The notes below the pieces were generated by a model that was not told the origin of the DNA, searched no databases, and worked only from the letters and a program-made list of their open reading frames with translations. Shown here one piece after another: positions 7,194 through 63,604 of a stretch of 64,000 bases of DNA. Position numbers and translations under genes: made by a program. This stretch comes from Candidatus Saccharimonadia bacterium (GTDB lineage Bacteria > Patescibacteriota > Saccharimonadia > Saccharimonadales > UBA4665). How positions within the stretch are numbered: the first letter of the stretch is position 1; every line of letters begins with the position of its first letter. The stretch is from NCBI GenBank assembly GCA_035479335.1, contig DATIIU010000002.1, positions 37,716 through 101,715 on the forward strand, read 5' to 3'.

Positions 7194-7822
7194 ATGTTAA
7201 GACTACTGGGCCCACAGTTCCGCCTTCAGGGGTACTTTGACAAATCAGATCATTACAGTACATAACGCCTATATCTACCAAGATGTAGGTTGTTACGTGT
7301 ATATCAGGGCAGAACAGAGGTAGGGAAGGCTGGCTAGCATTATCCGGCTAGCGCTTGGCGCTAGTATTCCTTGTTTCTGGTCTGCTCTGGTTGAGCGTTT
7401 TTGTGAGGGCTATAACTAGCCATCCAATAGTAGCTCCCGTAGCAGAAAACTGTAACGCTTACTTTTAAATCTATGTGCTAATTAGGTAACTAACTAGAAC
7501 AATTGGTTTTGCAATTTTAGTGTATGGCAAAGCAACTATGTACAAAGATAGGAGTTTTCCTGAATGACTTTAGGAGAGGCAATTGTGCTCAGCTACAAAA
7601 ACAGTAGCCGGGTGCGGTTGCCTTTCCTATCGGCACAATAGGAATTACCTCGCTTTGTGCATTGCAGCCGCATGTACAAACTGAAGGACAAGCAGACAGA
7701 TTCACCAGCACCATCGTGCCGCAACTGTGCAAAAGACATCCGCGTCCTAGCGCAGACTCCCATCCGCCTGCTTCGGGAATCTCCCGAACAGACCGTCCGC
7801 AAGGACAGAGAAGGGTTACGCC

Positions 7823-8728
7823 ATGACCACCATGGACATCCGCGAGGAAGAGCTCCGCGAAGCTCTCGACTACCGCTCAACTGGCGGTGACGCCGGGTTC
7901 ATCGACGCGCTCTACCGTCGCGGCCACAGCGTCGAGACCATCCGGCGCGTGCTCGGCACGGTCAACAGCTACGACTCCGACTACTCGGACGAGGAGCTCA
8001 TCGCCGACCTGTTCGACTCGCACCGCGCCCTGAAGGACCGCGTCGACCGGCATGACATCATGTTCGCCGAAATCTTCCGTCGCCTCGACGACAAGGTCTC
8101 CAAGCGGACGTGGGCCGTCTCCATCATGGGATGGGCCGTGATGACCGTGCTGCTGTTCCTCCTCGACTGGCCCGGCACCAACGCGGCCGCGCACATCATC
8201 CAGGTGGTCTTCGGCTTCGGCGTGTTCTGCTTCGTGATCTACGCGGGTTCGCGCAACACGGAGCGCTCGTCCGACAACCGGAACCGCTGGACCCGTTCCA
8301 GGAACCGCTCCCGCGGCTCTCGCTCCGCTCACCCGGCACCCCGTCCCGCCGCTGTCCGCCCGCCGTCCCGCCCGGGTTCCGACACCGATCGTCCCGACCG
8401 CTCCCGCGGCTCGGCACGCTCGGGCGTCCTCCCTCGCGTCGGCGGCGAGCCCCGTACCTCCCTCGACGATCTCCTGGAAGGGTCTCACGTCGATGAGTAC
8501 CCCGTGGACGACGTCCATGAGGAGATCGAAGCTCGTCGCACCGACCCCAACGTGGGGAACGCCTTCGCCCACCTCGGCCCCGAGTCCGGCGTCGTCGGTT
8601 CCACCCCTGTCGGCTCCGGCCGTCCCGCCGCTGTCCGCCCGCCGTCCCGCCCGGGTTCCGACACCGGTGGCTCCCGTCCCACCCGCAGTCCCGCCGACGA
8701 CGTCTTCTTCAACCAGGACGAGGACTAG
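7823..8728 (+). CDS. high-GC hypothetical membrane protein with Arg/Pro/Ser-rich disordered tail (island A)
   Basis: 301 aa. GC3-rich codons, two central TM helices (WAVSIMGWAVMTVLLFLL, IIQVVFGFGVFCFVIYAG), repeated RPAAVRPPSRPGSDT. GAAGGG lies upstream of the ATG. Confidence 0.6.
   Translation: MTTMDIREEELREALDYRSTGGDAGFIDALYRRGHSVETIRRVLGTVNSYDSDYSDEELIADLFDSHRALKDRVDRHDIMFAEIFRRLDDKVSKRTWAVSIMGWAVMTVLLFLLDWPGTNAAAHIIQVVFGFGVFCFVIYAGSRNTERSSDNRNRWTRSRNRSRGSRSAHPAPRPAAVRPPSRPGSDTDRPDRSRGSARSGVLPRVGGEPRTSLDDLLEGSHVDEYPVDDVHEEIEARRTDPNVGNAFAHLGPESGVVGSTPVGSGRPAAVRPPSRPGSDTGGSRPTRSPADDVFFNQDED
8341..8676 (+). repeat. 47-bp perfect direct repeat (8341-8387 and 8630-8676) inside the island A ORF
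   Basis: CCGTCCCGCCGCTGTCCGCCCGCCGTCCCGCCCGGGTTCCGACACCG occurs twice, 289 bp apart, in the same frame. Confidence 0.9.
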
Positions 8729-8797
8729 TTGGTAGTTCGTACCACCTGACACTTGCGACCAGCGCCGCTGAGTTCGCCCGAACTAAGGAAGACAGTA

Positions 8798-10078
8798 ATG
8801 AGCAAAAGGACTTCGCGTTCCGGCGCCCTCATCGGCCTCGGATTCACGGCGGTGGCCGTGACTGCGCTCTGGCCGGCTATCAACAGCTCGGCTTCGGCCA
8901 ACGGCCCCGGCAAGCCCGGATCATCCGCCTCGGCCACGGCTTCCGCCACCGCCACCGGTTCGACCACCAGCCCGACGACCACCGTCACGACGTCCGCTCC
9001 GGCTCCCGCCGTGGCCAAGTCGTGCGACATCACCGGGATCGTGTTCTACCACAAGGATGCCACCGGCGACGACTTCGGCCCCAAGCCGACCGTCACCGAC
9101 TCGGCTTCAGCTGGGAAGCACTTCGAGGACAAGTTCTGTCCGTCCAAGGGCGCCAGTGACCCGTCGTTCGCCGCCGTGATCATCACTGCGCACGCACGAG
9201 CGGTCGCGACGCACACGAGCGGAGTCGACTCCACCACCGTCACCCAGGCGCAGGCTATGGCCACCGCGTGGGTCACCGGCAAGGACACCACCGACTGGAC
9301 CTCCAAGGTCACGGTCTTCGTGAAGACGATCGCCTCCTACGAGGTCAAGCAGGACAACAACCCGGTCTACTCCACCTTCAACATGCAGGGCGGCAAGGAC
9401 GGCCAGCCCACGCTGACCTTCACTGACAACGTGAACCACCCGGCCGGCCTGGTCGTGGTGATCCACTTCAACGACGGAACTCCGGACATGACGCTCCGGC
9501 TCGACTGCGACCTGCAGCCGACAACGGACGTCGCTGTGACGCCGAGCCCCACCACGGGTCCGACGACGCCGCAGCCGACGGGTTCCCAGGCGCCGCCCTG
9601 CACCACCTGCGGTGGCACCACGCCGTGCACGACCTGCAAGACCAGTACCACCCCGCCCCCGTGCGGAAGTGCGTGCAACCACACGACGCCGCCGACCACC
9701 CGGCCGACGACGCCGTCTTCACCGCCCCACAGCACCACCCCGCCCCCGCCGGCTCCCAAGCCCGCGCCGCTCATCGTCGACTACACTCGACTGAACGACG
9801 TGGACGCCGGACAGAGTTCACCCAACTACCGGGTGATCGTCCAGTTGGCCAGCGGCGACAGTGGCACACTGTGCATCAGCTCGGCCTACGGGTCGATCAG
9901 CACTCCGTGCTTCTCGGTCGGCGGCGGTGTCACCACCAAGTACGTGACCTACACGGCCCCGTACGACGCCGGCACCGGATCCGACACCATCACGATCAAC
10001 CTGACCGACAACACTCTCGGCAAGACGGTCTCGGCCTCGGACACCTTCAAGGTGAACCCGCCCCCGGTCCGGCCGTAG
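8798..10078 (+). CDS. high-GC secreted protein with Thr/Pro-rich and Cys-containing linker (island A)
   Basis: ATG at 8798 preceded by AAGGAAG. Signal peptide MSKRTSRSGALIGLGFTAVAVTALWPAINSSASA. The linker TPQPTGSQAPPCTTCGGTTPCTTCKTSTTPPPCGSAC separates two beta-rich halves. The ORF-track start at 8753 lacks an RBS. Confidence 0.65.
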   Translation: MSKRTSRSGALIGLGFTAVAVTALWPAINSSASANGPGKPGSSASATASATATGSTTSPTTTVTTSAPAPAVAKSCDITGIVFYHKDATGDDFGPKPTVTDSASAGKHFEDKFCPSKGASDPSFAAVIITAHARAVATHTSGVDSTTVTQAQAMATAWVTGKDTTDWTSKVTVFVKTIASYEVKQDNNPVYSTFNMQGGKDGQPTLTFTDNVNHPAGLVVVIHFNDGTPDMTLRLDCDLQPTTDVAVTPSPTTGPTTPQPTGSQAPPCTTCGGTTPCTTCKTSTTPPPCGSACNHTTPPTTRPTTPSSPPHSTTPPPPAPKPAPLIVDYTRLNDVDAGQSSPNYRVIVQLASGDSGTLCISSAYGSISTPCFSVGGGVTTKYVTYTAPYDAGTGSDTITINLTDNTLGKTVSASDTFKVNPPPVRP

Positions 10079-10091
10079 TACCCGGCGTGCC

Positions 10092-10183
10092 CCTCGGTGA
10101 GCTCACTGCTTCGGCAGCGGACGTTCGCTCAACGCTTCGGCGATGAGAAGACGGCCGTGGGATTCCCCATGAGCTCACCGGGG
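10092..10183 (+). terminator. GC-rich nested inverted repeat 3' of island A ORFs
   Basis: Outer 14-bp stem CCTCGGTGAGCTCA (10092-10105) / TGAGCTCACCGGGG (10170-10183, one G-T pair). Inner hairpin CTGC-TTCG-GCAG (10106-10117). No T-tail. Confidence 0.4.
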
Positions 10184-10417
10184 CCACCCGATGACAGTTA
10201 GTGATATTTAGTCACGCAATTCTCCCAATAGGGATCCGAGTTGCGTGTGAGCATATAGTACAAGAGTACAACAAGCGTTACAGGCGTGTGTTAGAGAGGG
10301 TAAGCGACAGCTTACATTTTGCCTTACGGCATCAAAAACTCTCTGCACTAACCCTTAATGTTTTGTAATGATCTGATTTGCAGAGAAGGTTTCAAGCTAG
10401 GTTACTAGCTCGCAATT

Positions 10418-12167: not shown

Positions 12168-12294
12168 TCGCTCGTATTTTTAAGCCTAGCAATAGATGTT
12201 CGATTGGATAAATTAAGTCTGCAAAAGTACTTTATAGACACTAGACACTTGAGTGGTAGTACTTTATAATTCCAAGCAAGGACTATAAAGTACT

Positions 12295-13401
12295 ATGAAG
12301 CCAGATCCAACAAAACCCTACAACGCCTTACCTCACCTACCGCCTGAAGTGGACCTGAAAGATCAGCGATTATTGCTAGCTGCTTTAGAAGCAAGTGAGG
12401 CGATAGCCGAGCTTAAAACAATGCTGACATTAAGTAGTCGCAGCGTCAGTAATACTGTCGATTTGCTCTCACCTCTATTTGTCCCAGAAGCGGTTTCGAG
12501 TTCGGGTGTGGAGAATATTATTACGACGAATAATAGCGTTTACATAGCCAAAATCCTAGAAGAGCGTGAGTTGAGCCCTGCAGAGAAGGAGGCACTTAAC
12601 TATACGAGCGCGCTTGGAAGTGGTATCCAAATTCTAATAACTAAGGGTTTCTTGGCGACAAATGATTACATAAAAATGCAAGCAATATTGGAGCCCAACA
12701 AAAAAGGTGTTCGTAAATTGCCTGGTACGCAACTTGCGAATCCCGCAACCGGTGTCGTTTATTACACTCCTCCTGAAGGTGAAGAACGTATTCGTGGTTT
12801 ACTCAAAAATTTTGAGGATTACTTTAACGACGAGGCTCCCATTCACGAAGTATTTGCGCGAATGGCGATGCTGCACTATCAATTTGAGGCTATCCACCCC
12901 TTTAGTGATGGCAATGGGCGTACGGGTCGCATGCTCATGCCACTCTACCTTATGAAGCAAAAACGGCTTCCCCTACCAGTGTTATTCATTAGCCACTATA
13001 TCTTAGAACATCGTGATGAATATTATAAAAAGTTACGTGCCGTAACTTCAGACGGTAACTGGATGGAGTGGATTCTCTATATTACTATCGCAACTACCGA
13101 ACAAGCAAGGTATACATGTCAGATCCTAGAGAAGATAAGACGTGCTATTGAGTCGGTAAAAAAAACTCTGAAAGAAAAACTTCCTGCGGTCTATAGTTCA
13201 GAACTTATCGATTTCCTATTTTCAAACGCCTACTTCACACAGAAGGGTTTTGAAGAAGAAATAGGTGTTAGCCCCATGACGGCCCGCCGCTACCTCCAAG
13301 AGCTTGAGCGAGAGAAGGTGATAGTCAAGCAAAAACAGAATGGCAAGAATCGATATTTATACATCACGCCACGTTACATCGGCATTCTTAAGCAAGCTTA
13401 G
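12295..13401 (+). CDS. Fic family protein (AMPylator class with N-terminal inhibitory helix and C-terminal wHTH)
   Basis: 368 aa. Fic motif HPFSDGNGRTGR. N-terminal (S/T)xxxE(G/N) inhibitory motif SSGVEN. Confidence 0.92.
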   Translation: MKPDPTKPYNALPHLPPEVDLKDQRLLLAALEASEAIAELKTMLTLSSRSVSNTVDLLSPLFVPEAVSSSGVENIITTNNSVYIAKILEERELSPAEKEALNYTSALGSGIQILITKGFLATNDYIKMQAILEPNKKGVRKLPGTQLANPATGVVYYTPPEGEERIRGLLKNFEDYFNDEAPIHEVFARMAMLHYQFEAIHPFSDGNGRTGRMLMPLYLMKQKRLPLPVLFISHYILEHRDEYYKKLRAVTSDGNWMEWILYITIATTEQARYTCQILEKIRRAIESVKKTLKEKLPAVYSSELIDFLFSNAYFTQKGFEEEIGVSPMTARRYLQELEREKVIVKQKQNGKNRYLYITPRYIGILKQA

Positions 13402-13638: not shown

Positions 13639-13678
13639 ACGGCGATTAAATATATCAGCTAGATGGTATTATTAAAAA

Positions 13679-17289: not shown

Positions 17290-20200
17290 ATGCCAGCGGC
17301 TCGCCTACCTGTTCCGGGTTCTGATGACAATGTATGGGGCGATTTACTCAACCAGTTCCTGCAGACCGAACACAACACTGATGGTACGCTCAAGATACGT
17401 ACTGATGGTACCTTCTACACTAAACCAAGTAGTGGGGTGCCTGCGACTGACCTTTCTGCCGCTGTCCAGGGCTCACTTAATAATGCCAATGCCGCTGCCC
17501 AAATAAGTGGTGATTTAGGTGGTACGAGTGCGACACCTCGCGTTGCTAAGTTGCAGAACGTAACGCTGAACGCAAGTACGCCAACCAATGGCCAGGTGTT
17601 AAACTTTAATGCTAGCGCTAATGCTTGGGTGCCCGGTACGGTCAGCTCGATGACTGTTAGCGATGCGACAACTACCACTAAGGGTATTGTTCAGCTTGCC
17701 GGAGATCTTGCGGGAGGTGGTGCTGGTGGGTCTTCGCTTGCTTCTAGTCCAGTCGTAGCCGCAGGTGTGATAACTGGCGGAGCTGGCGGCAAGATTGCAG
17801 CCGGAACGATTACTGATGCTAACATCGCAAGCTCAGCAGCTATTGCTAAGAGCAAGCTTGCTAATCTCGGTATTGTTGACAGTGATGTTGCGGCTATCTC
17901 TGAAAGTAAGATTACTAATCTGTCTACCGATCTGGCGGCGACCGAGAAGACTGCCAACAAAGGCGTGGCTAATGGCTATGCAGGTTTGGATGGTAGTAGT
18001 CTATTGCCAACCGCTAACCTTCCTGTTGTTCCTATCACAAAAATTCCAACGGGAACAACTGGTTCTACGGTTGTCATTGGGAATGACACTAGAGTAGTAG
18101 GGGCTGTGCAATCCTCAGTTGCAACAACCAAAGGAGATCTACTTGCTGCTACTGCGGCTAGTACTGTTGCAAGGCAAGGCATCGGGGCAGATGGACAAGT
18201 TTTAACCGCGGATTCTTCTCAGGGGACGGGGATGAAGTGGGGGAATCTGCCGAGTAACTTGCCACCAAGCGGTGCCGCAAGTGGTGATCTCACAGGAACA
18301 TACCCCGGCCCGGTGCTTGCAGCATCGGGTGTAGCCGCCAGTAGCTATGGGGATGCATCCCATGTCTCTCAAGTGACCTTTGATGTCAAAGGGCGCGCAA
18401 CAAGTGCAAGCAGTACTGCGATCCAGATTGCTGAATCACAAGTTACTAATCTTTCTACTGATCTTGCTAGCAAAGCACAGGCACTGACAACGGTAGCGGT
18501 TCAAACAGCTAGCCCATATAATGCATCGGTCGGACAGTTTATTCCATTAGACACAACCAATGGCAATATAACTGTTAACCTACCAAGTACACCTGCCGAC
18601 AAGTCGGTAGTAAGTATTAAGCTTATCGCGCAAGCATCCTCGAATACGGCAACGATTACTGCAGGCGGTTCTGATGTGTTCAATAAGGCCGGTGGTTCTA
18701 CGAGTCTGTCGCTTGGCTTAGTAAACCAAGCAGTAACTGCACAATACGCAAGTGCGTCGGGAATTTGGTATGTGCATGGTGATGATTTGCCGCTCTCAGA
18801 TCTTGATAGCCGGTATGTGCGACAGAATACCTTAGTGTATAACGTCAAAGACTACGGTGCGGTTGGTAATGGCACTACAGATGACACAACTGCGATTCAG
18901 AGTGCTCTAAACGCGGCACCAATTGGCGGAGTTGTGTACGTACCTACGGGAACATATGCCATCTCAGCGCCACTGGTCATCCCACCAATGATCACGCTAC
19001 AGGGTACTCACGGTAACCGTATCCAATATGCTACGGCAGTACAGAATACGACACTCATTAAGCCGCTCGCGAGTTTTTCGGGTATTGCTGCCCTGAGGCT
19101 ACTCGACAAGGAAGAAGGTGGCTATAGTGCTGACAATGGTGGCCAGCGTATTAACGATATTTCACTTGATGGTTCTGCGCTTGCAGGCGGCTCAAACATT
19201 AGTGGTCTGCGGGCAACAGGTATTGTCCGTGATGTAATGTTGCAGAGAGTGTGTATACAAAATTTTCCGAAAAATGGATTCTCGACCGCGTCGTATACTC
19301 GACTGGATTCATCTTCGGGTAATCCGTATTCATGGTATTGGTTTAGCTGTATTGCCAACGCCAATGCTAACATTGGATACTCCATTGCTGCCCTCACGGA
19401 CACAGCAGTTATTAACTGCGAAGCAATCGGCAACTTAGTATATGGTTTCTTTGTCTCAAGTATGGCTAACTGCGAAGTCACTAACTGTCGTGCCGAATGG
19501 AACGGCAACTATGGTTTCTATGTCACAGGTGGTACCGGGAATGGTGGTTGTACCTTTAACGGTATTAGCACTGACCGTAATGAAAAATCGGGTGTTTATA
19601 TTGATGCCACCGGTACAGCTCCGCTGCTCTTCAATGGTGTGCAGAATCGTCGCGATGGACGAAATGCTTCGCTCGGGGGCGGATCCTATGCAGGTTTTGA
19701 AGCTAACGGGGCGACTTGTCCAATTATTATTAATGGCATTACTTGCTACCCAGGTGTTAACGATGATGGGTCAGGAGTTAGCTCGCCTCAGTACGGTGCG
19801 AAGTTTACCAGCTGTACATTTGCACAGATTGATAACGCCTATCTACATGCGGCCACACAGGGCTTACGTAACAGCGGCAACAACACACAGCTTATCTTGG
19901 GTTCAACGATGACCTATGCAACAGGAGCTGCGAGTACACCAACACGGACATTTGGCGGCTATCAACTACTCAGGAAGTCAGCTGATACTGCTCGGACCTC
20001 AACGGCTAGCCCTACAGATGATCCTCACTTGACAACAACAGTTGAACCGAACGCTACGTATGAGGTTGAGATCTTCGCTCGTTACGATGGTGCAACCACC
20101 GGTGATTGGCAATTTGCTTTCGACGTTCCGGCAAGTGCAACCTTCCACTGGCAGGGCACGGGCCTTCAGTCTACCGCAACTGGCACGGTCGCCAGTGTCA

Positions 20201-20403
20201 AGATGAGCGCTGCTTCTGAAACAGGTGGTGATACATACGGTGCAGCGGGCGTTGGTACTAAGACTGGCGCAAATATTGCAGGGATTCTCATAACTAGTGC
20301 AACTGGTGGTACATTTGCGCTGAAATGGGCACAAGGTACCTCCGACCCAAGTGCAACTACGCTCTTTACGGATTCATATATGCGTCTCAGGCAAGTAGGT
20401 TAA
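17290..20403 (+). CDS. large tail-fibre/tailspike-like protein with right-handed beta-helix (pectate-lyase-superfamily) domain
   Basis: 1037 aa. The N-terminal third has phage tail-fibre-type motifs (GYAGLDGSSLLPTANLP; duplicated ES(K/Q)(I/V)TNLSTDLA). The motif YNVKDYGAVGNGTTDDTTAIQSALNAAP...VYVPTGTY starts at about nt 18838 and is typical of the Pectate_lyase_3/tailspike fold. Confidence 0.8.
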   Translation: MPAARLPVPGSDDNVWGDLLNQFLQTEHNTDGTLKIRTDGTFYTKPSSGVPATDLSAAVQGSLNNANAAAQISGDLGGTSATPRVAKLQNVTLNASTPTNGQVLNFNASANAWVPGTVSSMTVSDATTTTKGIVQLAGDLAGGGAGGSSLASSPVVAAGVITGGAGGKIAAGTITDANIASSAAIAKSKLANLGIVDSDVAAISESKITNLSTDLAATEKTANKGVANGYAGLDGSSLLPTANLPVVPITKIPTGTTGSTVVIGNDTRVVGAVQSSVATTKGDLLAATAASTVARQGIGADGQVLTADSSQGTGMKWGNLPSNLPPSGAASGDLTGTYPGPVLAASGVAASSYGDASHVSQVTFDVKGRATSASSTAIQIAESQVTNLSTDLASKAQALTTVAVQTASPYNASVGQFIPLDTTNGNITVNLPSTPADKSVVSIKLIAQASSNTATITAGGSDVFNKAGGSTSLSLGLVNQAVTAQYASASGIWYVHGDDLPLSDLDSRYVRQNTLVYNVKDYGAVGNGTTDDTTAIQSALNAAPIGGVVYVPTGTYAISAPLVIPPMITLQGTHGNRIQYATAVQNTTLIKPLASFSGIAALRLLDKEEGGYSADNGGQRINDISLDGSALAGGSNISGLRATGIVRDVMLQRVCIQNFPKNGFSTASYTRLDSSSGNPYSWYWFSCIANANANIGYSIAALTDTAVINCEAIGNLVYGFFVSSMANCEVTNCRAEWNGNYGFYVTGGTGNGGCTFNGISTDRNEKSGVYIDATGTAPLLFNGVQNRRDGRNASLGGGSYAGFEANGATCPIIINGITCYPGVNDDGSGVSSPQYGAKFTSCTFAQIDNAYLHAATQGLRNSGNNTQLILGSTMTYATGAASTPTRTFGGYQLLRKSADTARTSTASPTDDPHLTTTVEPNATYEVEIFARYDGATTGDWQFAFDVPASATFHWQGTGLQSTATGTVASVKMSAASETGGDTYGAAGVGTKTGANIAGILITSATGGTFALKWAQGTSDPSATTLFTDSYMRLRQVG

Positions 20404-20553
20404 TACCACTGACAACTAGAAAGTAGCGCACAGTACATCTGTTGTCGGGCTTTACTGGCTATTGTATAGTTATTGTTTTAATGGTACGGTAGCAACGTTA
20501 TTCACCTATACAGTGATAACAGGTCATTTGCAGTCGAGACAGGAAGGGATCCC

Positions 20554-22260
20554 GTGTCACCCCGCTTCAGGTACTTCCGCGATCCACCGGCGCAAGGTAA
20601 GAGATTGCCCACGCCGCCGACCAACTACGAGAGAAAGGTGTATGTACAACGGCGTCTATGGTGGCTGACGCCTCTGTCGATGGTGTCCTTTACGGGTATC
20701 ACCATCTCGCAGGTTCTGTTCGGGCTGCGTCATCCGGCGCTGTTCGTCTTCTTGCCCCTGACCGCCTTCACGGTCTTCTACTACATCATCAGCCTGATGG
20801 TGACAGTCGGGTCGAAGGACTTCGACTACGATCGTCATGTCGAGCTGGTGAGCGACTGGTGGGAGCGGGTGAAACTTGGTCATGGGATGACGGCGCCCAG
20901 CGTCGACATCCTTTTGCCGATCTGCGGCGAGCCGATCCAAGTGATCCTCAACACCTGGCGCTACGTCAAGGAGCTCACCTATCCCGGTGTCGTGAAGGTC
21001 TATGTCCTCAACGACGGCCCCGATGGCCAGGACGAGGCGTTCCTCAAGCAGGAGGCGGCAGATCTGGGCTTCGTCTACCTCCGTCGCCCGGCTCGGACCG
21101 AAGCGAACACCCTGAACTTCAGGGGTGCCGAGAAGAAGGCGGGCAACCTGCACCACGGTCTGACTTACAGCGATGAACACGACCCTGGTGAGCTCGTCGT
21201 CATCTTTGACGCGGACTTCGTGCCAGCGAACATGATGCTGATGCACATGGTGCCCTACTTCTGGCGCTACAAGGGCCGGGGACACGACAAGGGCCTGGGT
21301 CTCTTGCAAACACCGCAGTACTTCCGCACCTGGAGCTCGCACATGGGCTGGCTGGAGCGCGGTGCGGGTGCTGTGCAAGAGTGGTTCTACCGCATCTCGC
21401 AGACCAGTCGCGAGCGGTGGGACGCCTCGATCTGCGTGGGCACTTGTGCCATGTACAGTCGGAAGGCCTTGAAGGAAAACGGCTGGACGACACTGATCGA
21501 GCACTCCGAGGACGTGCACACCGGGTACGACCTGCGTCGACTCGAGTGGCAGCTGATGTACATCCCCGTCGCTCTGTCGACTGGGATCTGCCCGTCGGTG
21601 CGCTCCTCCTTCCTCGCACAGCAGTACCGTTGGTGCATGGGCTCAATGAGCCTGCTCACCAGCCGCAAGTTCTGGAGCCTCAAGATGCCAATCCGCGCTC
21701 GCGCGGGGTACCTGTCGGGCTTCAGCTACTACATCCACACCGCCATGTTGACGTTTGTGGCTCCGGCTATCCCGCTGGTGCTGCTCGTGTTCTACCCGGA
21801 GATGGTGTACGCCAAGAACTATCGGCTCATCACGCCGAGCTTGGTGTACACGCTCGTGGCGGTACCGCTCTGGCACCGTAGCAAGTTCGGCTTGTCTGCG
21901 TTCGCCGTAAAGATGGTGTACGGCTGGGCGCACGTGTTCGCACTGCTCGACAAGGTTCGCGGCCGCCAGAAGGGCTGGCAAGCGACCGGCAACGCTGGTT
22001 CTACCCGAGGGATGCTGGACAAGCATTTCCTCGTAGGTACGATCGGCTGGGGCTGTACAACGGCCCTGGCTTGGATCGGGCTCGCAGTGTGGCGTGCTAC
22101 TATCGCCCCTGGAGTCGGCTGGGTGAACTTCATGCCTATGCTGGCATCGGGCTTGGTCTACGCGGCGGTCGTCGGTAAGACGCTCACCAAGACTGAGAGG
22201 TCCGAAGATCCAGAGTCGGACGACCAACTGGTCATGGAGTTGAGTGACAGTGACCGCTAG
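20554..22260 (+). CDS. high-GC processive family-2 glycosyltransferase (cellulose-synthase-like BcsA/CesA type) (island B)
   Basis: 568 aa. GTG preceded by AGGAAGGG. Motifs VLNDG, VIFDADF (DxD), QTPQYF, HSEDVHTG (TED), QQYRWCMG (QxxRW). TM helices on both sides of the catalytic domain. Hand count for 21001-21060 is 39/60 GC. Confidence 0.88.
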   Translation: MSPRFRYFRDPPAQGKRLPTPPTNYERKVYVQRRLWWLTPLSMVSFTGITISQVLFGLRHPALFVFLPLTAFTVFYYIISLMVTVGSKDFDYDRHVELVSDWWERVKLGHGMTAPSVDILLPICGEPIQVILNTWRYVKELTYPGVVKVYVLNDGPDGQDEAFLKQEAADLGFVYLRRPARTEANTLNFRGAEKKAGNLHHGLTYSDEHDPGELVVIFDADFVPANMMLMHMVPYFWRYKGRGHDKGLGLLQTPQYFRTWSSHMGWLERGAGAVQEWFYRISQTSRERWDASICVGTCAMYSRKALKENGWTTLIEHSEDVHTGYDLRRLEWQLMYIPVALSTGICPSVRSSFLAQQYRWCMGSMSLLTSRKFWSLKMPIRARAGYLSGFSYYIHTAMLTFVAPAIPLVLLVFYPEMVYAKNYRLITPSLVYTLVAVPLWHRSKFGLSAFAVKMVYGWAHVFALLDKVRGRQKGWQATGNAGSTRGMLDKHFLVGTIGWGCTTALAWIGLAVWRATIAPGVGWVNFMPMLASGLVYAAVVGKTLTKTERSEDPESDDQLVMELSDSDR

Positions 22261-22287
22261 TTCCTGTCGCTAGTCGACAACGGAACT

Positions 22288-22323
22288 GAGGCGGGGGCGC
22301 AAACACCCACGCGCCCCTGCCTC
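22288..22323 (+). terminator. GC-rich hairpin 3' of the GT2 gene
   Basis: GAGGCGGGGGCGC-aaacacccac-GCGCCCCTGCCTC (13-bp stem, one G-T pair), no T-tail. Confidence 0.5.
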
Positions 22324-22420
22324 ACCCTAAGCGTTTATACGAGCTACGTGCTCATTCAAATGCTTAGGTTTTGCTTCCATGAATGTGTATTCATGCTGAT
22401 GAGTTCAAAAGAACGAAAAG

Positions 22421-22465
22421 CATCTCTAGGGTGTTCGATTGCCCACAACTCTATATGCTACTAAG
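22421..22465. repeat. degenerate copy of the 23051-23120 promoter/leader repeat
   Basis: CATCTCTAGGGTGTTCGATTGCCCACAACTCTATATGCTACTAAG aligns with CATCCTAGGGTGTGTTCGGGTCTCCGAAGAGATCTATATAGTATTAAA. Confidence 0.5.
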
Positions 22466-22473
22466 TTGTTGCC

Positions 22474-22515
22474 TCAACTAAATACTGCAGGATCGTTCCT
22501 GGAGTACTTAGTTGA
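22474..22515. terminator. 18-bp-stem hairpin beginning GCCTCAACTAAA (family-1 slot terminator)
   Basis: TCAACTAAATACTGCAGG-atcgtt-CCTGGAGTACTTAGTTGA, 16 of 18 positions paired. Its first 12 nt with the preceding GC are identical to the hairpin at 34559. Confidence 0.55.
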
Positions 22516-22543
22516 AGACAGATTGGATAGCAGTGACGCGCAT

Positions 22544-22603
22544 GGCGGTGGGTAGTGTCCGAAGACAACTGTAGACTGGGCTAATCCCAGGTTACCCACC
22601 GCC
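22544..22603 (-). terminator. GC-rich nested inverted repeat 3' of the cassette C ORF
   Basis: Outer perfect 11-bp stem GGCGGTGGGTA (22544-22554) / TACCCACCGCC (22593-22603). Inner hairpin CTGGG-ctaat-CCCAG. Confidence 0.45.
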
Positions 22604-22640
22604 CGCGCGACTACTGGTATCACGCTGCCCTCAGCTCGTA

Positions 22641-23045
22641 CTAGACGCTTGCTGACACGCCGTTCATCAGTTGCCGGAGGTTGTGCATGAGCGCGGCCAG
22701 GTCGACAGTGATGTCGCACGAGCTCTCTCCGGGCTGACGGAAGCGAGTCACCTCGATGTACATCTTGGCATCAGCGAGGGCATCCCCCGTGAAGCAGTCG
22801 ATGAGTGCGTCGATGGAGATCGGGGCATCGGTCTGGTCCGATGCCGTGATTGTGTACTGCCGGCTGCCTGGGGCCTGGTTCTCGCCAGTAGTGGTTGCTG
22901 AGGGGTGCTTCCCTTCCGTGAGTGTTGGGAGCATGCCCCAGACCGTGAGCGTCACCTCGTAGCCGGTGTCAGCCCATGAAGCCTGGAGATGCGCCTTACC
23001 CGTAGCCCGGCTGGACCTGCTGCGGTGTTGTTGAGAACGGAGCAT
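22641..23045 (-). CDS. high-GC hypothetical protein (cassette C cargo)
   Basis: 134-aa ORF with GC3-rich codons. The ATG is 7 nt downstream of the right inverted-repeat arm. No motif recognised. Confidence 0.5.
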   Translation of the reverse strand: MLRSQQHRSRSSRATGKAHLQASWADTGYEVTLTVWGMLPTLTEGKHPSATTTGENQAPGSRQYTITASDQTDAPISIDALIDCFTGDALADAKMYIEVTRFRQPGESSCDITVDLAALMHNLRQLMNGVSASV

Positions 23046-23050
23046 CGTGG

Positions 23051-23120
23051 TTCCAATCTGTTGTTAACACATCCTAGGGTGTGTTCGGGTCTCCGAAGAG
23101 ATCTATATAGTATTAAAACA
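23051..23120. repeat. promoter/leader repeat, full copy (upstream of cassette C cargo)
   Basis: The 40-nt core GTGTTCGGGTCTCCGAAGAGATCTATATAGTATTAAAACA (23081-23120) is 37/40 identical to 25094-25133. On the minus strand it reads TTAAGA-18-TATATA followed by a hairpin leader. Confidence 0.8.
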
Positions 23121-23201
23121 CTTTTTGTCTTAAATGACCACTGGCATGAGCCAGCATAATTTATTTACACAATAAAATAAAAGTGATACTTTAAAGTTAT
23201 C

Positions 23202-25081: not shown

Positions 25082-25133
25082 TTCCAATACTTTGTGTTCG
25101 GGTCTCCAAGGAGATCTATATAGTCTTAAAACA
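25082..25133. repeat. solo copy of the promoter/leader repeat with no cargo ORF
   Basis: TTCCAATACTTTGTGTTCGGGTCTCCAAGGAGATCTATATAGTCTTAAAACA. It lacks the CTGT of the inverted-repeat arm and a 17-nt segment present in the 23051 copy. Confidence 0.8.
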
Positions 25134-34559: not shown

Positions 34560-34562
34560 CCT

Positions 34563-34602
34563 CAACTAAACAGTACAAGATTTGTGTTGTACTGCTTGGT
34601 TG
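34563..34602. terminator. 16-bp-stem hairpin beginning GCCTCAACTAAA (family-1 slot terminator)
   Basis: CAACTAAACAGTACAA-gatttgtg-TTGTACTGCTTGGTTG, 14 Watson-Crick pairs plus one G-T out of 16. It starts at the rsmA stop codon. Confidence 0.55.
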
Positions 34603-34632
34603 GGGACAGATCAGGAGGGGCTATGGCGCGCA

Positions 34633-34692
34633 GTGCGGCGGGCGGTGTCAGAAGACACCATATCCGGACGTATGTCCAGACTCCCGCCGCAC
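34633..34692 (-). terminator. GC-rich nested inverted repeat 3' of the cassette D ORF
   Basis: Outer 10-bp stem GTGCGGCGGG / CCCGCCGCAC. Inner hairpin GGTGTC-agaa-GACACC. Confidence 0.45.
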
Positions 34693-34713
34693 GCACGACT
34701 AGCTGCTCTGTCC

Positions 34714-35235
34714 TCAGATGATCGCCGTCGCGGTGGCCTCGTCGGGAGTGGTCCCGGCCGTGCGCATCATGTCTGCTGCCATGAGGCTTCCCAGGGCGCG
34801 GACCGTCTTGAGGTTCACCCGGAGCGTTGTGGACTGGTCGGGGTCCTGGGCGGTGGCTTGCAGGGCACGGCGACGGTTCTTGTTGCCGGCGATGCGGCTC
34901 AGCACAGCCTCCATGGCGGCCCCGTTGACAGTCTCGGCGACGCTCAGCACGGCGTCGCAGTTTTGAACGGTCAGACGGTAGGGGCTGACCTCGGGGTTGT
35001 GCCTCTCGTTGTAGGCGTAGGCCTCGACCTCCGTGGGCTCGCCGAGCTGGTAGTTCACATGGGGGTGGTCCGTCGGCAGCTCACGCTCGGCGAGCAGTTC
35101 GTGGTTGACGAACGCGAAGTCTGTGGTCATCGTGCCATCGTCAGACGGTCGCTGGACGATCGTCATCTCCACCCTGGTGGGCAGCATGCACGTCACGGCG
35201 GAACGGCCGAATTGGATGATGTCCGCGAAAGCCAT
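34714..35235 (-). CDS. high-GC hypothetical protein (cassette D cargo)
   Basis: 173-aa ORF with GC3-rich codons. AGGAGG lies 7 nt upstream of the ATG. No motif recognised. Confidence 0.5.
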   Translation of the reverse strand: MAFADIIQFGRSAVTCMLPTRVEMTIVQRPSDDGTMTTDFAFVNHELLAERELPTDHPHVNYQLGEPTEVEAYAYNERHNPEVSPYRLTVQNCDAVLSVAETVNGAAMEAVLSRIAGNKNRRRALQATAQDPDQSTTLRVNLKTVRALGSLMAADMMRTAGTTPDEATATAII

Positions 35236-35302
35236 GAGGCTTCCTCCTGATCTGTTGGTCTGCTTGAAGCAGATGCTGTATACCCAGAGGGTACTATATG
35301 GT

Positions 35303-35331
35303 ATTATAAAATATTCTTATTATATTCACAA
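35303..35331 (-). promoter_or_regulatory. sigma70-type promoter reading into cassette D
   Basis: Minus strand TTGTGA (35331-35326), 17-nt spacer, TATAAT (35308-35303). It lies back-to-back with the tmRNA promoter. Confidence 0.45.
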
Positions 35332-35396: not shown

Positions 35397-35784
35397 GGGG
35401 CTGAATTTTAAGCTCGACGTTGGTACGTTACGGTTAGATCAGCAGGTCGCTTGCTAAGCGTTATATGGCACAATTTTTAAATGCAAAAACTGCATTCTTG
35501 GACAAGTTCAAGAGCTTGAAGAACTTCAACGCTCAGTTGGCTTTCCAAACAGCCTAATTATTTATTAGGCAACGCCTTTCGCGACGTCAGATAGCGAAAT
35601 ACGCGTTCTATATTTCTGAACGCTCGGATGGGCCTATCTAACCCAACCGCTAAGATTAGGATTGCTCGCATGCAATGTTTGTCGATTTCGATACGCATGC
35701 GCTAAGACGGCAAAACCGACTAAGCCTGTAGACGACTAACTTATACGCCGACGGACCCGGGGGCAGTACCCGGCAGCTCCACCA
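35397..35784 (+). ncRNA. ssrA: tmRNA (ssrA)
   Basis: The 5' GGGGCTGAATTTTAAGCTCGACG and 3' GGACCCGGGGGCAGTACCCGGCAGCTCCACCA form the tRNA-like domain. The tag frame runs from GCA 35483 to TAA 35555-35557 and encodes AKTAFLDKFKSLKNFNAQLAFQTA. The stop lies in the GCCTAAT/ATTAGGC helix. An extended -10 TGGTATAAT sits at 35350-35358. Confidence 0.9.
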
Positions 35785-36683: not shown

Positions 36684-36834
36684 AGCGCCCCTAGGCCTTA
36701 TATGCCAGTCTGTTACGCTCATTCTCTTGCTTGTACTCTTATGTAATAAGACTATATAACTTTTAATTGTATTGTGAGACGCAATGAGATAAAGGATATT
36801 GCTTGATGGAATTGGTATAAATCTTTGAATCGTC

Positions 36835-36913
36835 GGGTGGTGTGTTGCGCTAGCTGGGGGCTGTGGGTGTCCTTGTGGACAACCATAACCCTCGCTCGCG
36901 CGACACACCACCC
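36835..36913 (-). terminator. GC-rich nested inverted repeat 3' of the island E ORF
   Basis: 16-bp stem GGGTGGTGTGTTGCGC (36835-36850) / GCGCGACACACCACCC (36898-36913), one G-T pair. Inner hairpin GTCC-ttgt-GGAC. It lies 8 nt after the stop codon. Confidence 0.45.
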
Positions 36914-36920
36914 TGACGGC

Positions 36921-37655
36921 TCAGACCTGCAGGTCGTTCTTCCCACCGATGTTCATGGACGTCACCTTCAGGTCGGGCAGCTGGTCAGTCACCATGCTGA
37001 GGAGGTTCTGGACCGTCGGGTCCGACAGCCAGACGCCGGAGGACACCTCGATCAGGTACGACGTGTCACCGGTGGTGTACACGAAGAGCAGGTCGAAGGC
37101 GGTCGGCTTGTTGTTGCGGTCGTTCCAGATGGTCTCGACCTGCTGGTCGAAGATCTTGCCGCTGGCGGCGTGGAACTTCCACGTGCTCGCGATGCCGTCC
37201 GGCCAGAGGCTGGCGACGACGGGGCCGCGGAGGTGGAACGTGAAGCCGTCCGAGATGGTCTGGCGCGAGCCGTAGCCCATGATGGTGAAGCTCGCCAGAG
37301 CGTCCGTGGAGATCCCTCCCGACGGGGTCGTGGTCACCATGGCGTACTGGCAGTTGTCCTCGTAGTCGCCGGTCTTGGTCGGGTCGTTGCCGGACGGGAG
37401 CAGATCGGCCATGTTGACGGCGAGGTCAGGCGCGATGTTGTTCACCGCTTTCACCGGCAGCAGCGCGCAGGTGTCGATCCTGTGGTCGTTGTTGTAGACG
37501 GACCTCTGGGTCGGCGCGGCGCTGGTGCTGGTCGCGGTCGGCGGGATGGAGGCCTGGCGCTGCTGCGGCTGGCTGGTCTGAACGGCGCCGAAGGCGGCCA
37601 GGCCACCAATGGCGAGCAGTGCGATGATGCTGAGGCGACGGCGGATGTTGCGCAT
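36921..37655 (-). CDS. high-GC secreted protein, possibly DUF3558-like (island E)
   Basis: 244 aa. Signal peptide MRNIRRRLSIIALLAIGGLAAFGA. IDTCALLPVKAVNNIA and a second conserved Cys resemble actinobacterial DUF3558 proteins (from memory). Hand count for 37381-37440 is 40/60 GC. Confidence 0.6.
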   Translation of the reverse strand: MRNIRRRLSIIALLAIGGLAAFGAVQTSQPQQRQASIPPTATSTSAAPTQRSVYNNDHRIDTCALLPVKAVNNIAPDLAVNMADLLPSGNDPTKTGDYEDNCQYAMVTTTPSGGISTDALASFTIMGYGSRQTISDGFTFHLRGPVVASLWPDGIASTWKFHAASGKIFDQQVETIWNDRNNKPTAFDLLFVYTTGDTSYLIEVSSGVWLSDPTVQNLLSMVTDQLPDLKVTSMNIGGKNDLQV

Positions 37656-37844
37656 CTTGCGGGGCTCCCTGGGTAGGTGTGGTGGAATGTGCAGGACTGA
37701 ACTGTCTCGTGTAGCCAGTAGGCTAACTTAATTACTATAACACAATTTTATTAAAAGTAAATACCTCCCCCAAAAAACACTTGTAATGGCTAGAAGAAAA
37801 GAATTGTTTTTCATGTAGCCGTTAAGAGCGCCCTTTCATGCTTC

Positions 37845-40025: not shown

Positions 40026-40200
40026 TTTCCCCGTCAAGGTAGGTTCTTATAAAATGGCTTTTAGAGAAGATCTAGAAGGATAAGAAAACCCACAAACAGC
40101 AACATACAACAAACAAAACACAAAAGTGCACCCGGTGGGCATCACTCGTCATTGACCGACGAGATACTTCCGGCCTGGCTCATCACATGAGTTATGAGCG

Positions 40201-40659
40201 TCAGCTCTCGTCGTCAGTGGTGACGGCAGGGAGCGTGATCTCCGCACTGCTCGTGATCTCGATCCACTCGGTGGTCTTCGCGAGCTGAGCGTGAGCCACC
40301 GGGAACCGGGCCGCGAAGACCTCGGCGTTCAGGTAGGTCAGGAGCTCACCCGTGCCGAGTCCGCCGCGCCCGGAGATGGTGCGGTTGTAGACGAAGACGT
40401 GCCCGTCGGCCTCGCCTATGGTGTCGAAGAGCTCGTGGATGTGCTGGAGCTCCTCGTAGCAAGGGAGGCAGATGGCCGAGGTGGTGCCGTCGTTCATCGG
40501 GAGGACCGCCCTGCCGTCGATCTCGTGCTCCATGAGCTCGCCCCAGGCGTTGGCAGCCCTCTGGCTGTTGAAGACCAAGGCCAGGTCGCCGGTCTCGATG
40601 AAGCCCGGGCCCTTGTGGGTGAGTGCGACGTGGCAGTGGAACGGGTGCCCGGTAGACAT
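40201..40659 (-). CDS. high-GC hypothetical protein (island F)
   Basis: ATG 40659 is preceded by AAAGGAA (translation starts MSTGHPFHCHV...). GC3-rich codons. A terminator-like GCCCACCGGGTGC plus T-rich run lies at 40126-40145 on the minus strand. Confidence 0.5.
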   Translation of the reverse strand: MSTGHPFHCHVALTHKGPGFIETGDLALVFNSQRAANAWGELMEHEIDGRAVLPMNDGTTSAICLPCYEELQHIHELFDTIGEADGHVFVYNRTISGRGGLGTGELLTYLNAEVFAARFPVAHAQLAKTTEWIEITSSAEITLPAVTTDDES

Positions 40660-41130
40660 GGTGTGGTTCCTTTCGGTTTGCACGGAGTCTCTTCTGTCAC
40701 TCAACTCTCACAAGGGAGGTGTCGGGCTGTGTCTTGAAATTGCATGGTAAGACACCAACAAGAAGAGTAAGAGGCTACTACGTTGTCCGTAATTTTCTCA
40801 TACCCTTCTTGGTAGCTAGTAGTGTAGGCGGTATTGTATCAGTCTACGCTATACCATATGTTGCTGTTTGTGAAGGTACGGTTGGAGTGTTGGAGCATGG
40901 AGCCCCTTCCTCGACAACGCTAAATGAAAGCAGGTGCTCTCACCGTGATTATTATATAATAATTTATAATCTAGAGCAAGAATCATGAATGTGGCTAGTA
41001 TGCAAAAAATGGATATGGCGCGTCTGCTAGATGAGCTTAAACATGTAATCTTGACACGACTTTTAGACTGCATCAAGATGGATGGATGGGTTGAGCGACT
41101 GCTCCCCATGTAAGTCTCAGTGCACGACTA

Positions 41131-41182: not shown

Positions 41183-41249
41183 ATGGTTTTGAGAAACTGC
41201 CACCAAATGGAGGCGGTACCTAGTAGCTCCTGGGAGAAAAGGTCTGTCC

Positions 41250-41651
41250 ATGAGAAAGCTCATGGCGGTTCTGGCGGTGAGCGCAGTTATGGCTGTGCTT
41301 GGCGGCTGCGCAAAGTCGGGCTCGAGTGCTCCTCCGCCCTCGATTCCGTACTCCATCGAGAGTAGCGCTCCGTCATCCACTGCGGCGCAGTCAAGCTCCG
41401 CACCCGTACCCGCGTCCACGCCGACAACCTTCGATGCTGCCACGATCGCGCAGCTAGGAGATGAGGCCGCATTCGTCAAGCAGCTCAATGACCAGGCGTT
41501 TGCGAACCGGCAGCCGCTGAGTGGGAAGGACGCCACAAGGTGCGAGGCACAAGCGTATAAGTACAACGACACTGTGAAGCGCCTTCACCTGACAGCCGAC
41601 CAGCTCGGGGGGCAACTGTTGCCGCCCAGTCTCGCTTGCGAGACGAAGTGA
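41250..41651 (+). CDS. high-GC lipoprotein (island G)
   Basis: Lipobox AVLGGC after MRKLMAVLAVSAVM. Ser/Pro/Ala-rich linker. Hand count for 41281-41340 is 40/60 GC. Confidence 0.65.
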   Translation: MRKLMAVLAVSAVMAVLGGCAKSGSSAPPPSIPYSIESSAPSSTAAQSSSAPVPASTPTTFDAATIAQLGDEAAFVKQLNDQAFANRQPLSGKDATRCEAQAYKYNDTVKRLHLTADQLGGQLLPPSLACETK

Positions 41652-41749
41652 GCTAGTCTGCTCTAGCCCAGATAAGCTGTAGGTAAGCGAGGTCATGCGC
41701 GATAAGGCTACATCGCGCCCACTAGTGACGCGTACATGTGACCTGGCGT

Positions 41750-41810
41750 GGGGACGAGAAGACAAAGAACTCCGGGCAAGCCAGCCTGTTGAGATCCTCT
41801 TCTCGTCCTC
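41750..41810 (+). terminator. GC-rich long-range inverted repeat 3' of the island G ORF
   Basis: GGGGACGAGAAGA (41750-41762) / TCTTCTCGTCCTC (41798-41810), 13 bp with one G-T pair. Confidence 0.4.
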
Positions 41811-42022
41811 ACGTTTGCACTACCTTTATCCAATGTTCAGAACTAAGGAACGCAAGCTCTTGCAGCTACTTTGATGTATTACTGCCTACGCCCCACTATT
41901 TGATAGTAATGTTTCGTGAAGACAAAACATCGTCGGTATAAATGACGATGTCGTTTGGATTGCTACCTTCGTCGGACTACTTGACTCTTCCTGTGTCGGT
42001 CAGAGTACGAATAGCGCGGCGA

Positions 42023-42099
42023 TGGTGGAGCTACAGGGACTCAAACCCTGGACCTCTTCCATGCCATGGAAGCGCTCTAATCAACTGAGCTACAGCCCC
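42023..42099 (-). tRNA. tRNA-Ala(GGC): tRNA-Ala (anticodon GGC), CCA encoded
   Basis: The reverse complement GGGGCTGTAGCTCAGTTGATTAGAGCGCTTCCATGGCATGGAAGAGGTCCAGGGTTTGAGTCCCTGTAGCTCCACCA folds as a cloverleaf. The G3-U70 identity pair is present. Confidence 0.92.
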
Positions 42100-63051: not shown

Positions 63052-63156
63052 ATGAAAAAAGCCGCGTCGAGTTTCTAAGATAATGTTGTGTATGGGGTAA
63101 AGCATTCTTTGTGCTTTATAACAAACAACTCTACTCAAGTAACTTTCGTGCGGCTT
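63052..63156 (-). repeat. family-2 terminator module, copy A (105 nt)
   Basis: The minus strand reads AAGCCGC-N-AATGCTTTACC-N-ACGCGGCTTTTTTCATG, a 7-bp outer stem plus T6. It abuts the GC-rich hairpin of cassette H. Confidence 0.7.
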
Positions 63157-63216
63157 AAGCCCAACTGCTCTGCGTACGCGCGTGTTCGCGTGCAGCTCCT
63201 TTGTGGAGTTGGGCTT
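63157..63216 (-). terminator. GC-rich nested inverted repeat 3' of the cassette H ORF
   Basis: Perfect 10-bp stem AAGCCCAACT / AGTTGGGCTT with a GC-rich structured 40-nt loop. Confidence 0.45.
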
Positions 63217-63229
63217 GTTCGTCGGCGGA

Positions 63230-63535
63230 TCAGTCGTCGTGGTTGGTGTCCTGCGCGTTGACCTGGGCGGCCAGCTGCCTACGGAGCACGTCCATGGACA
63301 GGTGGATCGGCAGGCCGATCGCGACCGCGAACATGGCGACTGCGAAGGCGAGGATGGGCATGCCGGACCAGGAGAGGCGCACCACGTAGTCCTGGAAGCC
63401 GGAGCTGGAGTTGGCGATCGAGCTGAGCCAACCAGCGGCCATGACACCATAGGTCAGGGCTACGAAGGTGACAACCAGCGCGAGTTTGGGACGGCGCACC
63501 AGGAAGGTGGCGGTGAATCTGACGAACGACAGCAT
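63230..63535 (-). CDS. high-GC small membrane protein (cassette H cargo)
   Basis: 101 aa with about 3 TM helices. GAGAGGAAA lies upstream of the ATG. GC3-rich codons. Confidence 0.55.
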   Translation of the reverse strand: MLSFVRFTATFLVRRPKLALVVTFVALTYGVMAAGWLSSIANSSSGFQDYVVRLSWSGMPILAFAVAMFAVAIGLPIHLSMDVLRRQLAAQVNAQDTNHDD

Positions 63536-63575
63536 TGCTGTTTCCTCTCGGGTTGTGAGGCGGTGCCTCGCTAAC

Positions 63576-63604
63576 GAACTTATATATTATAGTATAATGT
63601 ATAA
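63576..63604 (-). promoter_or_regulatory. consensus sigma70 promoter reading into cassette H
   Basis: Minus strand TTGACA (63604-63599), exactly 17 nt, TATAAT (63581-63576). It sits in AT-rich DNA directly abutting the GC-rich leader. Confidence 0.55.

Follow-up and report, generated by a model that had tools for sequence, protein, structure and literature searches.

Two GC-rich units with a common architecture

The stretch of DNA analysed here, a window of 64,000 nucleotides from contig DATIIU010000002.1 of a Candidatus Saccharimonadia bacterium, has an overall GC content of 49% and contains two GC-rich units, hereafter cassette C and cassette D, in each of which an open reading frame (ORF) is bracketed by a perfect inverted repeat. 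The surrounding genes have housekeeping functions (pyruvate kinase, PGK, TIM, PcrA, RsmA, tmRNA, and LeuRS). The same stretch is present on the 367-kb contig CAZBGX010000001.1 of assembly GCA_964491855.1, and the 134-aa product of ORF C is identical to a hypothetical protein of a metagenome-assembled genome (MAG) designated 'Candidatus Saccharimonadia bacterium'. In a 100-nt GC profile, blocks of 60-67% GC extend over positions 7686-10218, 20517-22364, 22517-23065 (cassette C, 60.7% GC), 34582-35273 (cassette D), 36819-37730, 40128-40708, 41209-41815, and 63139-63581. Considering that one reading frame in every block has a GC content at third codon positions (GC3) of 0.71-0.94, compared with 0.38-0.48 in resident genes, these blocks are true high-GC coding sequences, and codon composition supports a foreign-like (actinomycete-like) character of the ORFs in the two cassettes.

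Cassette C lies on the minus strand. It begins with a promoter-like region at 23104-23133 (TTAAGA at 23133-23128, an 18-nt spacer, and TATATA at 23109-23104), followed by a 5' leader at 23066-23103 with two small hairpins (23088-23103 and 23066-23085). The upstream arm of the inverted repeat (23052-23061; TCCAATCTGT, or 5'-ACAGAUUGGA-3' in the mRNA) overlaps a weak Shine-Dalgarno sequence and precedes the ATG (23043-23045) by 6 nt, rather than the 7 nt given in an earlier note on this locus. ORF C (22641-23045) encodes 134 aa without known family, and its strand and frame are supported by a GC3 of 0.76 (GC by codon position 0.585/0.511/0.763). The 3' untranslated region (UTR) contains a GC-rich, Y-shaped (three-way) structure at 22537-22609, with a nested inverted repeat matching at 11/11 positions (22544-22554 / 22593-22603). 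This structure is favoured on the sense strand, by a slight to clear margin in stability. The downstream arm (22518-22527; ACAGATTGGA, or 5'-UCCAAUCUGU-3' in the mRNA), an anti-Shine-Dalgarno partner of the upstream one, lies 2 nt before a closing hairpin at 22471-22515, an AT-rich, terminator-like element between convergent genes whose 19-nt arms (22474-22492 / 22497-22515) are 89% complementary. The hairpin starts with GCCTCAACTAAA, which is found exactly twice in the window, at 22471 and 34559. The perfect 10-bp repeat, the nested repeat, the minus-strand ORF, and the hairpin were thus all located as the earlier note had described them; the two arms are the sole exact copies in the window and coincide with the GC step on both sides. 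The 40-nt leader/promoter block of cassette C recurs on the minus strand at 25094-25133, between NUDIX and pyruvate kinase genes, as a solo copy without ORF or 3' module that differs at 3 of 40 positions, and a degenerate third copy follows the closing hairpin at 22426-22465.

Cassette D, also on the minus strand, has a promoter TTGTGA-17-TATAAT at 35303-35331 (10/12 matches to the sigma-70 consensus), a 5' leader with two hairpins at 35258-35296, and an upstream arm at 35243-35255 (5'-ACAGAUCAGGAGG-3') that includes AGGAGG as Shine-Dalgarno sequence and precedes the AUG by 7 nt. The orphan ORF D (34714-35235, 173 aa, GC3 0.862) is followed by a Y-shaped 3' UTR structure at 34628-34698, an anti-Shine-Dalgarno downstream arm at 34606-34618 (5'-CCUCCUGAUCUGU-3'; pair probability 0.89-1.0), and a terminator-like closing hairpin at 34560-34605 shared with the end of rsmA. 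The repeat of cassette D is perfect over 13/13 positions (34606-34618 / 35243-35255) and equivalent in position to that of cassette C. NCBI annotation places a 192-aa plus-strand ORF at 34672-35250 instead; the minus-strand GC by codon position of 0.63/0.47/0.86 indicates that the 173-aa ORF is the real gene. The Y structure of cassette D weakly resembles the Rfam family RT-13 (RF03017), found for this cassette only, and a retron reading was rejected, with a score of 27.5 bits against a gathering threshold of 69.1 and no reverse transcriptase in the window. A tmRNA gene (35397-35784) directly adjoins the cassette.

The match in order and spacing that the earlier note had seen between the two cassettes proves to be homology of their 3' modules: the Y structure, downstream arm, and hairpin align over ~147 nt (z=15.8), with eight pairs showing compensatory changes, whereas the coding regions are dissimilar (z=-0.8). 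What the 5' modules have in common is limited to a promoter core of 16 nt, a pair of hairpins in matching order, and an ACAGAT that immediately precedes the ribosome-binding site. Both pairs of arms consist of a common ACAGAT/ATCTGT and a divergent part, UGGA/UCCA in cassette C versus CAGGAGG/CCUCCUG in cassette D, and the ten shared arm positions contain three double-sided compensatory changes and no disruption. The two proteins are not detectably related (BLASTP E=0.15, hhalign probability 0.3%), and their homology was rejected, the likeness being limited to a similar order of secondary-structure elements. Neither ORF has a match in Pfam, PHROGs, PADLOC, NCBIfam, or PDB sequences, nor relatives in IMG/VR, and protein searches with ORF D returned only self-hits. 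An AlphaFold2 model of the cassette C protein (predicted local distance difference test, pLDDT, 69; predicted template modelling score, pTM, 0.62) has a small beta-beta-beta-alpha-alpha-beta-alpha fold for which Foldseek found no match in the PDB below E=0.27; the model of the cassette D protein is unreliable (pLDDT 40).

Conservation in a second species and searches for further copies

Chance readily produces perfect 10-bp inverted repeats at spacings of 300-1000 nt: ~43 k-mer matches are expected per window, and a score of 10 is reached by 13% of 400 random pseudo-islands. The repeat of cassette C alone is therefore not significant, and its significance, as far as the compared sequences go, rests on conservation and covariation. 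The 13-bp repeat of cassette D is reached by 0.25% of the control pseudo-islands (p ~0.0025). Another island, F40, has a perfect 16-bp inverted repeat CACAAACAGCAACATA (40091-40106 / 40857-40872) around a GC-rich orphan ORF on the minus strand (40201-40659), a length attained by 0 of 400 control pseudo-islands.

An exhaustive HMMER search of 1.84 billion representative proteins identified a single homologue of ORF C, P0003, with 40% identity, encoded in the same neighbourhood of another Saccharimonadia MAG, GCA_964478195.1 (contig L015), where the order of a tail-fibre-like gene, a glycosyltransferase gene, and a convergent small ORF is shared. The entire architecture of cassette C is present there. 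Both arms are identical at 10/10 positions, whereas the coding sequence has 61% nucleotide and 40% amino acid identity and the flanks 41-85%; identity is 85% in the promoter region, 77% in the Y structure, and 78% in the closing hairpin. Differences in the Y stems and the closing hairpin are compensatory, as are those by which the leader hairpins have been kept, and the Y structure is homologous, with compensatory pairs, among cassette C, cassette D, and the ortholog. In all three units, the AUG is preceded at 6-7 nt by the upstream arm, which overlaps the ribosome-binding site, and 0-2 nt (2 nt in cassette C, 0 nt in cassette D) separate the downstream arm from the closing hairpin. Fourfold degenerate sites differ between the two genomes at 39% in the glycosyltransferase gene and at ~60% in resident genes, so the conservation of 20/20 arm positions is far from the neutral expectation (p ~4e-5 given the glycosyltransferase value). 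These comparisons indicate that the recurrence of the architecture is real and selected. ORF C has a ratio of nonsynonymous to synonymous substitution rates of 0.55, compared with 0.16 in the glycosyltransferase and 0.01-0.05 in resident genes, and its 40% identity is found between species whose glycolytic enzymes are >90% identical. On the promoter side of the cassette, contig L015 contains a tRNA-Glu gene together with a fragment that looks like the N-terminal part of an IS5-type transposase (9239-9850; the latter read from the translation and unconfirmed by any tool), and since a 433-aa gene holds this position in the window, the region has been rearranged between the two genomes.

Further copies were sought in the window plus 17 kb of additional flank (~81 kb of genome), which contains two, cassettes C and D. 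A covariance model of the 3' module (R1) detected only these two in the window and the ortholog, and nothing further in the 17 kb flank or in six related contigs. The 3' hairpins of E36, G41, and H63, tried as members of the same family, went undetected by this model. A pattern combining junction and hairpin returned only the known ortholog among 185,579 GTDB species-representative genomes, no hit in JGI metagenomes, and only chance matches in IMG/VR. The CTATAT(A/G)GTATTA block that the earlier note had offered as a mark of the cassettes turned out to be a general promoter-like motif of this genome, mostly before plus-strand genes. Blocks resembling CTATATRGTATTA are enriched in the window (11 versus 2.4 expected), nearly all on the plus strand (for example, 12283-12295 and 13659-13671), and the position of several of them a few nucleotides ahead of a start codon suggests that they may be -10 elements of leaderless or short-leader genes.

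A predicted self-pairing mRNA and competing explanations

We propose that the inverted repeat may be a panhandle between the 5' UTR and the 3' UTR that masks the Shine-Dalgarno sequence, and that cassettes C and D would be paralogous transcription units rather than mobile cassettes, a reading to which comparison and folding give a little better than an even chance. Given the distances from the upstream arm to the AUG (6-7 nt) and from the downstream arm to the closing hairpin (0-2 nt), both arms fall within the predicted transcript, and we infer that transcription runs across them. A role at the RNA level is suggested since, in addition, the upstream arm sits on the ribosome-binding site in both paralogs and the downstream arm abuts the closing hairpin. 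In predicted full-length mRNAs of all three units (637-738 nt), the long-range helix is part of the minimum free energy structure with pair probabilities of 0.83-1.0, and mutating or deleting the downstream arm in silico raises the predicted unpaired fraction of the region from the Shine-Dalgarno sequence to the AUG from 0.22-0.32 to 0.42-0.55. The downstream arm can also pair locally, though more weakly, with an ACAG-like box that immediately follows the stop codon (-14 to -19 kcal/mol).

In the proposed explanation, each unit opens with a promoter, a leader with two small hairpins, and ACAGAU with the Shine-Dalgarno sequence; the GC-rich, fast-evolving orphan ORF comes next, and after it the GC-rich Y-shaped domain of the 3' UTR, an anti-Shine-Dalgarno stretch with AUCUGU at its end, and the closing hairpin. 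The inverted repeat would be the DNA footprint of a long-range RNA helix that loops out the entire ORF and hides the ribosome-binding site, and any regulatory effect of this pairing would most likely be to keep the full-length mRNA poorly translated and/or protected until it is opened. Opening might come from 3' processing, from a helicase or RNase III-type cleavage, or from competition by the ACAG-like box; it is speculation that competition between this box and the upstream arm could form a switch.

Comparable arrangements have been described. The 3' UTR of the Staphylococcus aureus icaR mRNA is complementary to its own Shine-Dalgarno region, a pairing proposed to limit translation and control decay (PMC3868564), and the hbs mRNA of Bacillus subtilis provides a precedent for anti-Shine-Dalgarno pairing between 5' and 3' UTRs (PMC5737220); distal anti-ribosome-binding-site sequences have a general effect (PMC12697547). 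As in these mRNAs, a 3' UTR segment of each cassette is complementary, across the ORF, to the Shine-Dalgarno region of the same gene (UCCAAUCUGU/ACAGAUUGGA in cassette C; CCUCCUGAUCUGU/ACAGAUCAGGAGG, including AGGAGG, in cassette D), and the pairing is conserved and covaries within a sample of three sequences, with arms identical at 10/10 positions in the ortholog and three compensatory changes between the cassettes. The present case differs in that the pairing is a prediction, the arms match perfectly over 10-13 bp, a conserved GC-rich domain of Y shape is present in the 3' UTR as well, and the scaffold is common to two genes with unrelated ORFs in a Patescibacteria genome. The cassettes also resemble phage morons, which are autonomous transcription units of foreign base composition between resident genes; however, their setting is chromosomal and housekeeping, they have no phage relative, and 5'-3' complementarity is not a moron feature.

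Several results weigh against the panhandle. The TTAAGA-18-TATATA of cassette C, which the earlier note regarded as promoter-like, lies where it was placed but fails a sigma-70 consensus scan; the closing hairpins of both cassettes lack a U-tract; and the leader hairpins are more stable on the antisense strand. All 33 arm pairs are Watson-Crick pairs without a single G-U, which a DNA-level site predicts equally, and the shared ACAGAT could be the core of a protein or recombinase site. The evidence base is three sequences, two of them independent, and the equilibrium folds of mRNAs of 640-740 nt ignore co-transcriptional folding and ribosomes. In addition, the left arm of island F40 appears to lie beyond a terminator-like hairpin (40129-40141) and may thus be outside the mRNA, which hints at a possible DNA-level cause of bracketing in this genome.

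Such a cause would make the arms recombination sites, either the inverted repeats of an invertible ON/OFF segment or the ends of a capture cassette recognised through the ACAGAT core, which we consider unlikely. It would fit the perfect repeats without wobble pairs, the arms that differ between elements and are identical within each as in invertons, their coincidence with the GC step, the bracketing of other GC islands (F40 16/16, A 11/11, and E36 15/18), and the combination of unrelated ORFs with homologous 3' modules. Like invertons such as fimS, the cassettes have short perfect inverted repeats around a functional segment next to a fixed promoter; but the repeat lies on the ribosome-binding site instead of flanking the promoter, for which recombination offers no reason in either paralog, and a single orientation is seen, without a break at the arms, in two NCBI MAG assemblies, Logan unitigs of two runs, and the ortholog. 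These sources also agree on the junctions, which are thus not assembly joins: unitigs L001 and L002, each from a different run, match cassette C including its two arms at 100% identity, and L006 spans cassette D completely. No recombinase, integrase, transposase, or reverse transcriptase was found among the window ORFs or in the annotation of the 17 kb flank. Integron cassettes share the variable ORF followed by a structured imperfect palindrome and the unrelated cargo beside related structured sites, but here the R''/R' cores, integrase, attI, and array are lacking, each unit has its own promoter-like site (of consensus grade only in cassette D), and the two are dispersed, 12 kb apart. With no RYYYAAC/GTTRRRY cores on either strand of the three 3' modules and no integrase in the window or flanks, the integron/attC reading was rejected. 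A transposon or miniature inverted-repeat transposable element was rejected as well, being unlikely because no target-site duplications occur, with no transposase in the window; the sequences outside the arms are unrelated, and the arms differ among cassettes C, D, and F40. The least probable of the readings considered is that the scaffold, from promoter and leader through the ACAGAT-anchored arms and the Y domain to the hairpin, might be a dedicated expression and capture platform of an episymbiotic Patescibacterium, into which host-derived GC-rich ORFs would be inserted and exchanged by a novel kind of recombination at the ACAGAT-anchored inverted repeats; the folded Y structure would then serve as the recombination site, an analogue of attC that differs in its chemistry and in having a promoter for each cassette, and the bracketing of F40, A, and E36 would be a trace of this process. 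Cargo exchange is contradicted by the stable cargo of the ortholog in a second species: the same cargo occupies the same slot of GCA_964478195.1, and the alternative cargo or empty slots that the earlier note had envisaged in relatives were not seen. Its conclusion of a recurrent element or insertion mechanism rather than chance holds for the recurrence, which exceeds chance, but no evidence points to insertion or mobility, and the searches described above found no further copies.

The panhandle itself could serve a different kind of module, resembling type I toxin-antitoxin systems, in which the ORF would be harmful, the 5'-3' helix would hold the full-length mRNA inactive, and the 3' module would be covered by an antisense RNA; plus-strand transcription through the hairpin and Y structure could supply this RNA, for example by rsmA read-through in cassette D or from the degenerate promoter block at 22426-22465 in cassette C. 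We judge this quite unlikely. In type I toxin mRNAs such as hok (tac/fbi) and Helicobacter aapA1/IsoA1, a long-distance 5'-3' helix closes the full-length mRNA and conceals the ribosome-binding site, and the 3' partner adjoins the terminal hairpin (PMC5416894, PMC6733600). The same logic of masking (PMC5416894), a convergent plus-strand gene or promoter-like block facing the 3' module in both cassettes, closing hairpins that work on either strand, and a weak, non-significant similarity of cassette D to a RelJ/YefM antitoxin (E=0.68) would all be in keeping with it. Against this, the products of 134 and 173 aa look soluble and are not small hydrophobic peptides, type I toxins being membrane peptides of ~30-50 aa; no toxin, antitoxin, or defence family was matched, and the block at 22426-22465 is only 41% conserved in the ortholog. 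That the repeat has no function appears very unlikely; in this view, foreign DNA would have entered the loop of a palindromic terminator that was already there, or the match would be a relic of chance or neutral origin, and the unit would later have been duplicated. The frequency of 10-bp repeats by chance and the position of the arms in AT-rich, native-like sequence beside another hairpin would accord with such an origin, but both arms are fully conserved across species where neutral identity is ~60%, complementarity has been kept through three compensatory changes between paralogs and extends over 13/13 positions in cassette D (p ~0.0025), and the solo copy of the leader at 25.1 kb lacks a palindromic counterpart. 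On balance, these units are best read as a conserved scaffold of self-pairing mRNA enclosing two orphan genes that evolve fast and have a foreign composition, a variant of known 5'/3' UTR control.

Genomic neighbourhood and biological meaning

The glycosyltransferase gene beside cassette C (20554-22260) has its nearest relatives outside the Saccharimonadia-like sequences among CslA-like enzymes of Streptomyces and Streptosporangiales (47-50% identity), which makes an actinomycete-type origin of the GC-rich islands plausible on the evidence of sequence. Its GC3 is 0.77-0.94 in the window and in contigs L015, L017, L021, L148, and L149, with contig GC at ~50% and proteins ~54% identical between lineages; because this value is kept in every Saccharimonadia-like contig, the high GC content appears old and maintained and does not reflect a recent transfer. 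Its fourfold-site divergence between the two MAGs (0.39) is below that of resident genes (~0.60), synonymous divergence being a gauge of transfer recency that is affected by composition bias. By the proposed explanation, the GC-rich cargo of the cassettes would likewise be an old acquisition from a high-GC, actinomycete-type source, which the glycosyltransferase supports. Directly upstream of it, with the same adjacency in related contigs, a 1037-aa protein (17290-20403) strongly matches phage families of minor tail and tail-spike proteins with a pectate-lyase fold (phrog_11699, E=4e-79).

A type III hammerhead ribozyme is predicted on the plus strand at 22370-22424, ~110 nt downstream of the glycosyltransferase gene, as a full-length match with all core nucleotides (35.1 bits, gathering threshold 48.5; E=8e-4 for the window), and the sequence contains the CUGANGA and GAAA cores, a UH site, and three covarying helices. 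It also follows the glycosyltransferase gene in L015 (10650-10705, minus strand), L021 (~7661-7710), L149 (~7680-7740), and L017 (~7760-7960). Core changes among the window, L015, and L021 are confined to N7 and H17; stems are compensated in L021 and L149, N7 varies in L149, where the cleavage-site assignment is less clear, and one related contig has an insertion of ~190 nt in stem II. The ribozyme belongs to the 3' end of the glycosyltransferase gene and not to the cassette. A hammerhead within the Y structure was rejected, the CUGAGG box there not being conserved and the true hammerhead being a separate plus-strand element, and a hammerhead-core pattern run against metagenomes returned >120 unrelated hammerheads, mostly on aquatic contigs, and no cassette. 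Unitigs L001 and L002 both end at 22375, 3 nt from the predicted cleavage site (22377/22378), which may reflect a graph branch with a related strain.

In each of the islands at 7686-10218, 36819-37730, 41209-41815, and 63139-63581, one or two ORFs without family match are closely followed by a GC-rich hairpin; among these ORFs, that at 36921-37655 encodes a signal-peptide protein and that at 41250-41651 is lipoprotein-like. The related MAG likewise has island A, and a tRNA-Ala gene (42023-42099) lies ~200 nt from the island at 41.2-41.8 kb.

To our knowledge, almost nothing is known about post-transcriptional control in Saccharimonadia and the candidate phyla radiation. A real panhandle would be one of the first regulatory mRNA architectures to be reported from these bacteria, and with it would come a conserved, branched domain of the 3' UTR to which no Rfam family corresponds. 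The analysis also removes a tempting false lead, an integron-like cassette system that this genome does not show. This organism lives on actinomycete-type hosts, and a tiny family of very fast-evolving genes with actinomycete-like codon usage provides candidates for functions in host interaction.

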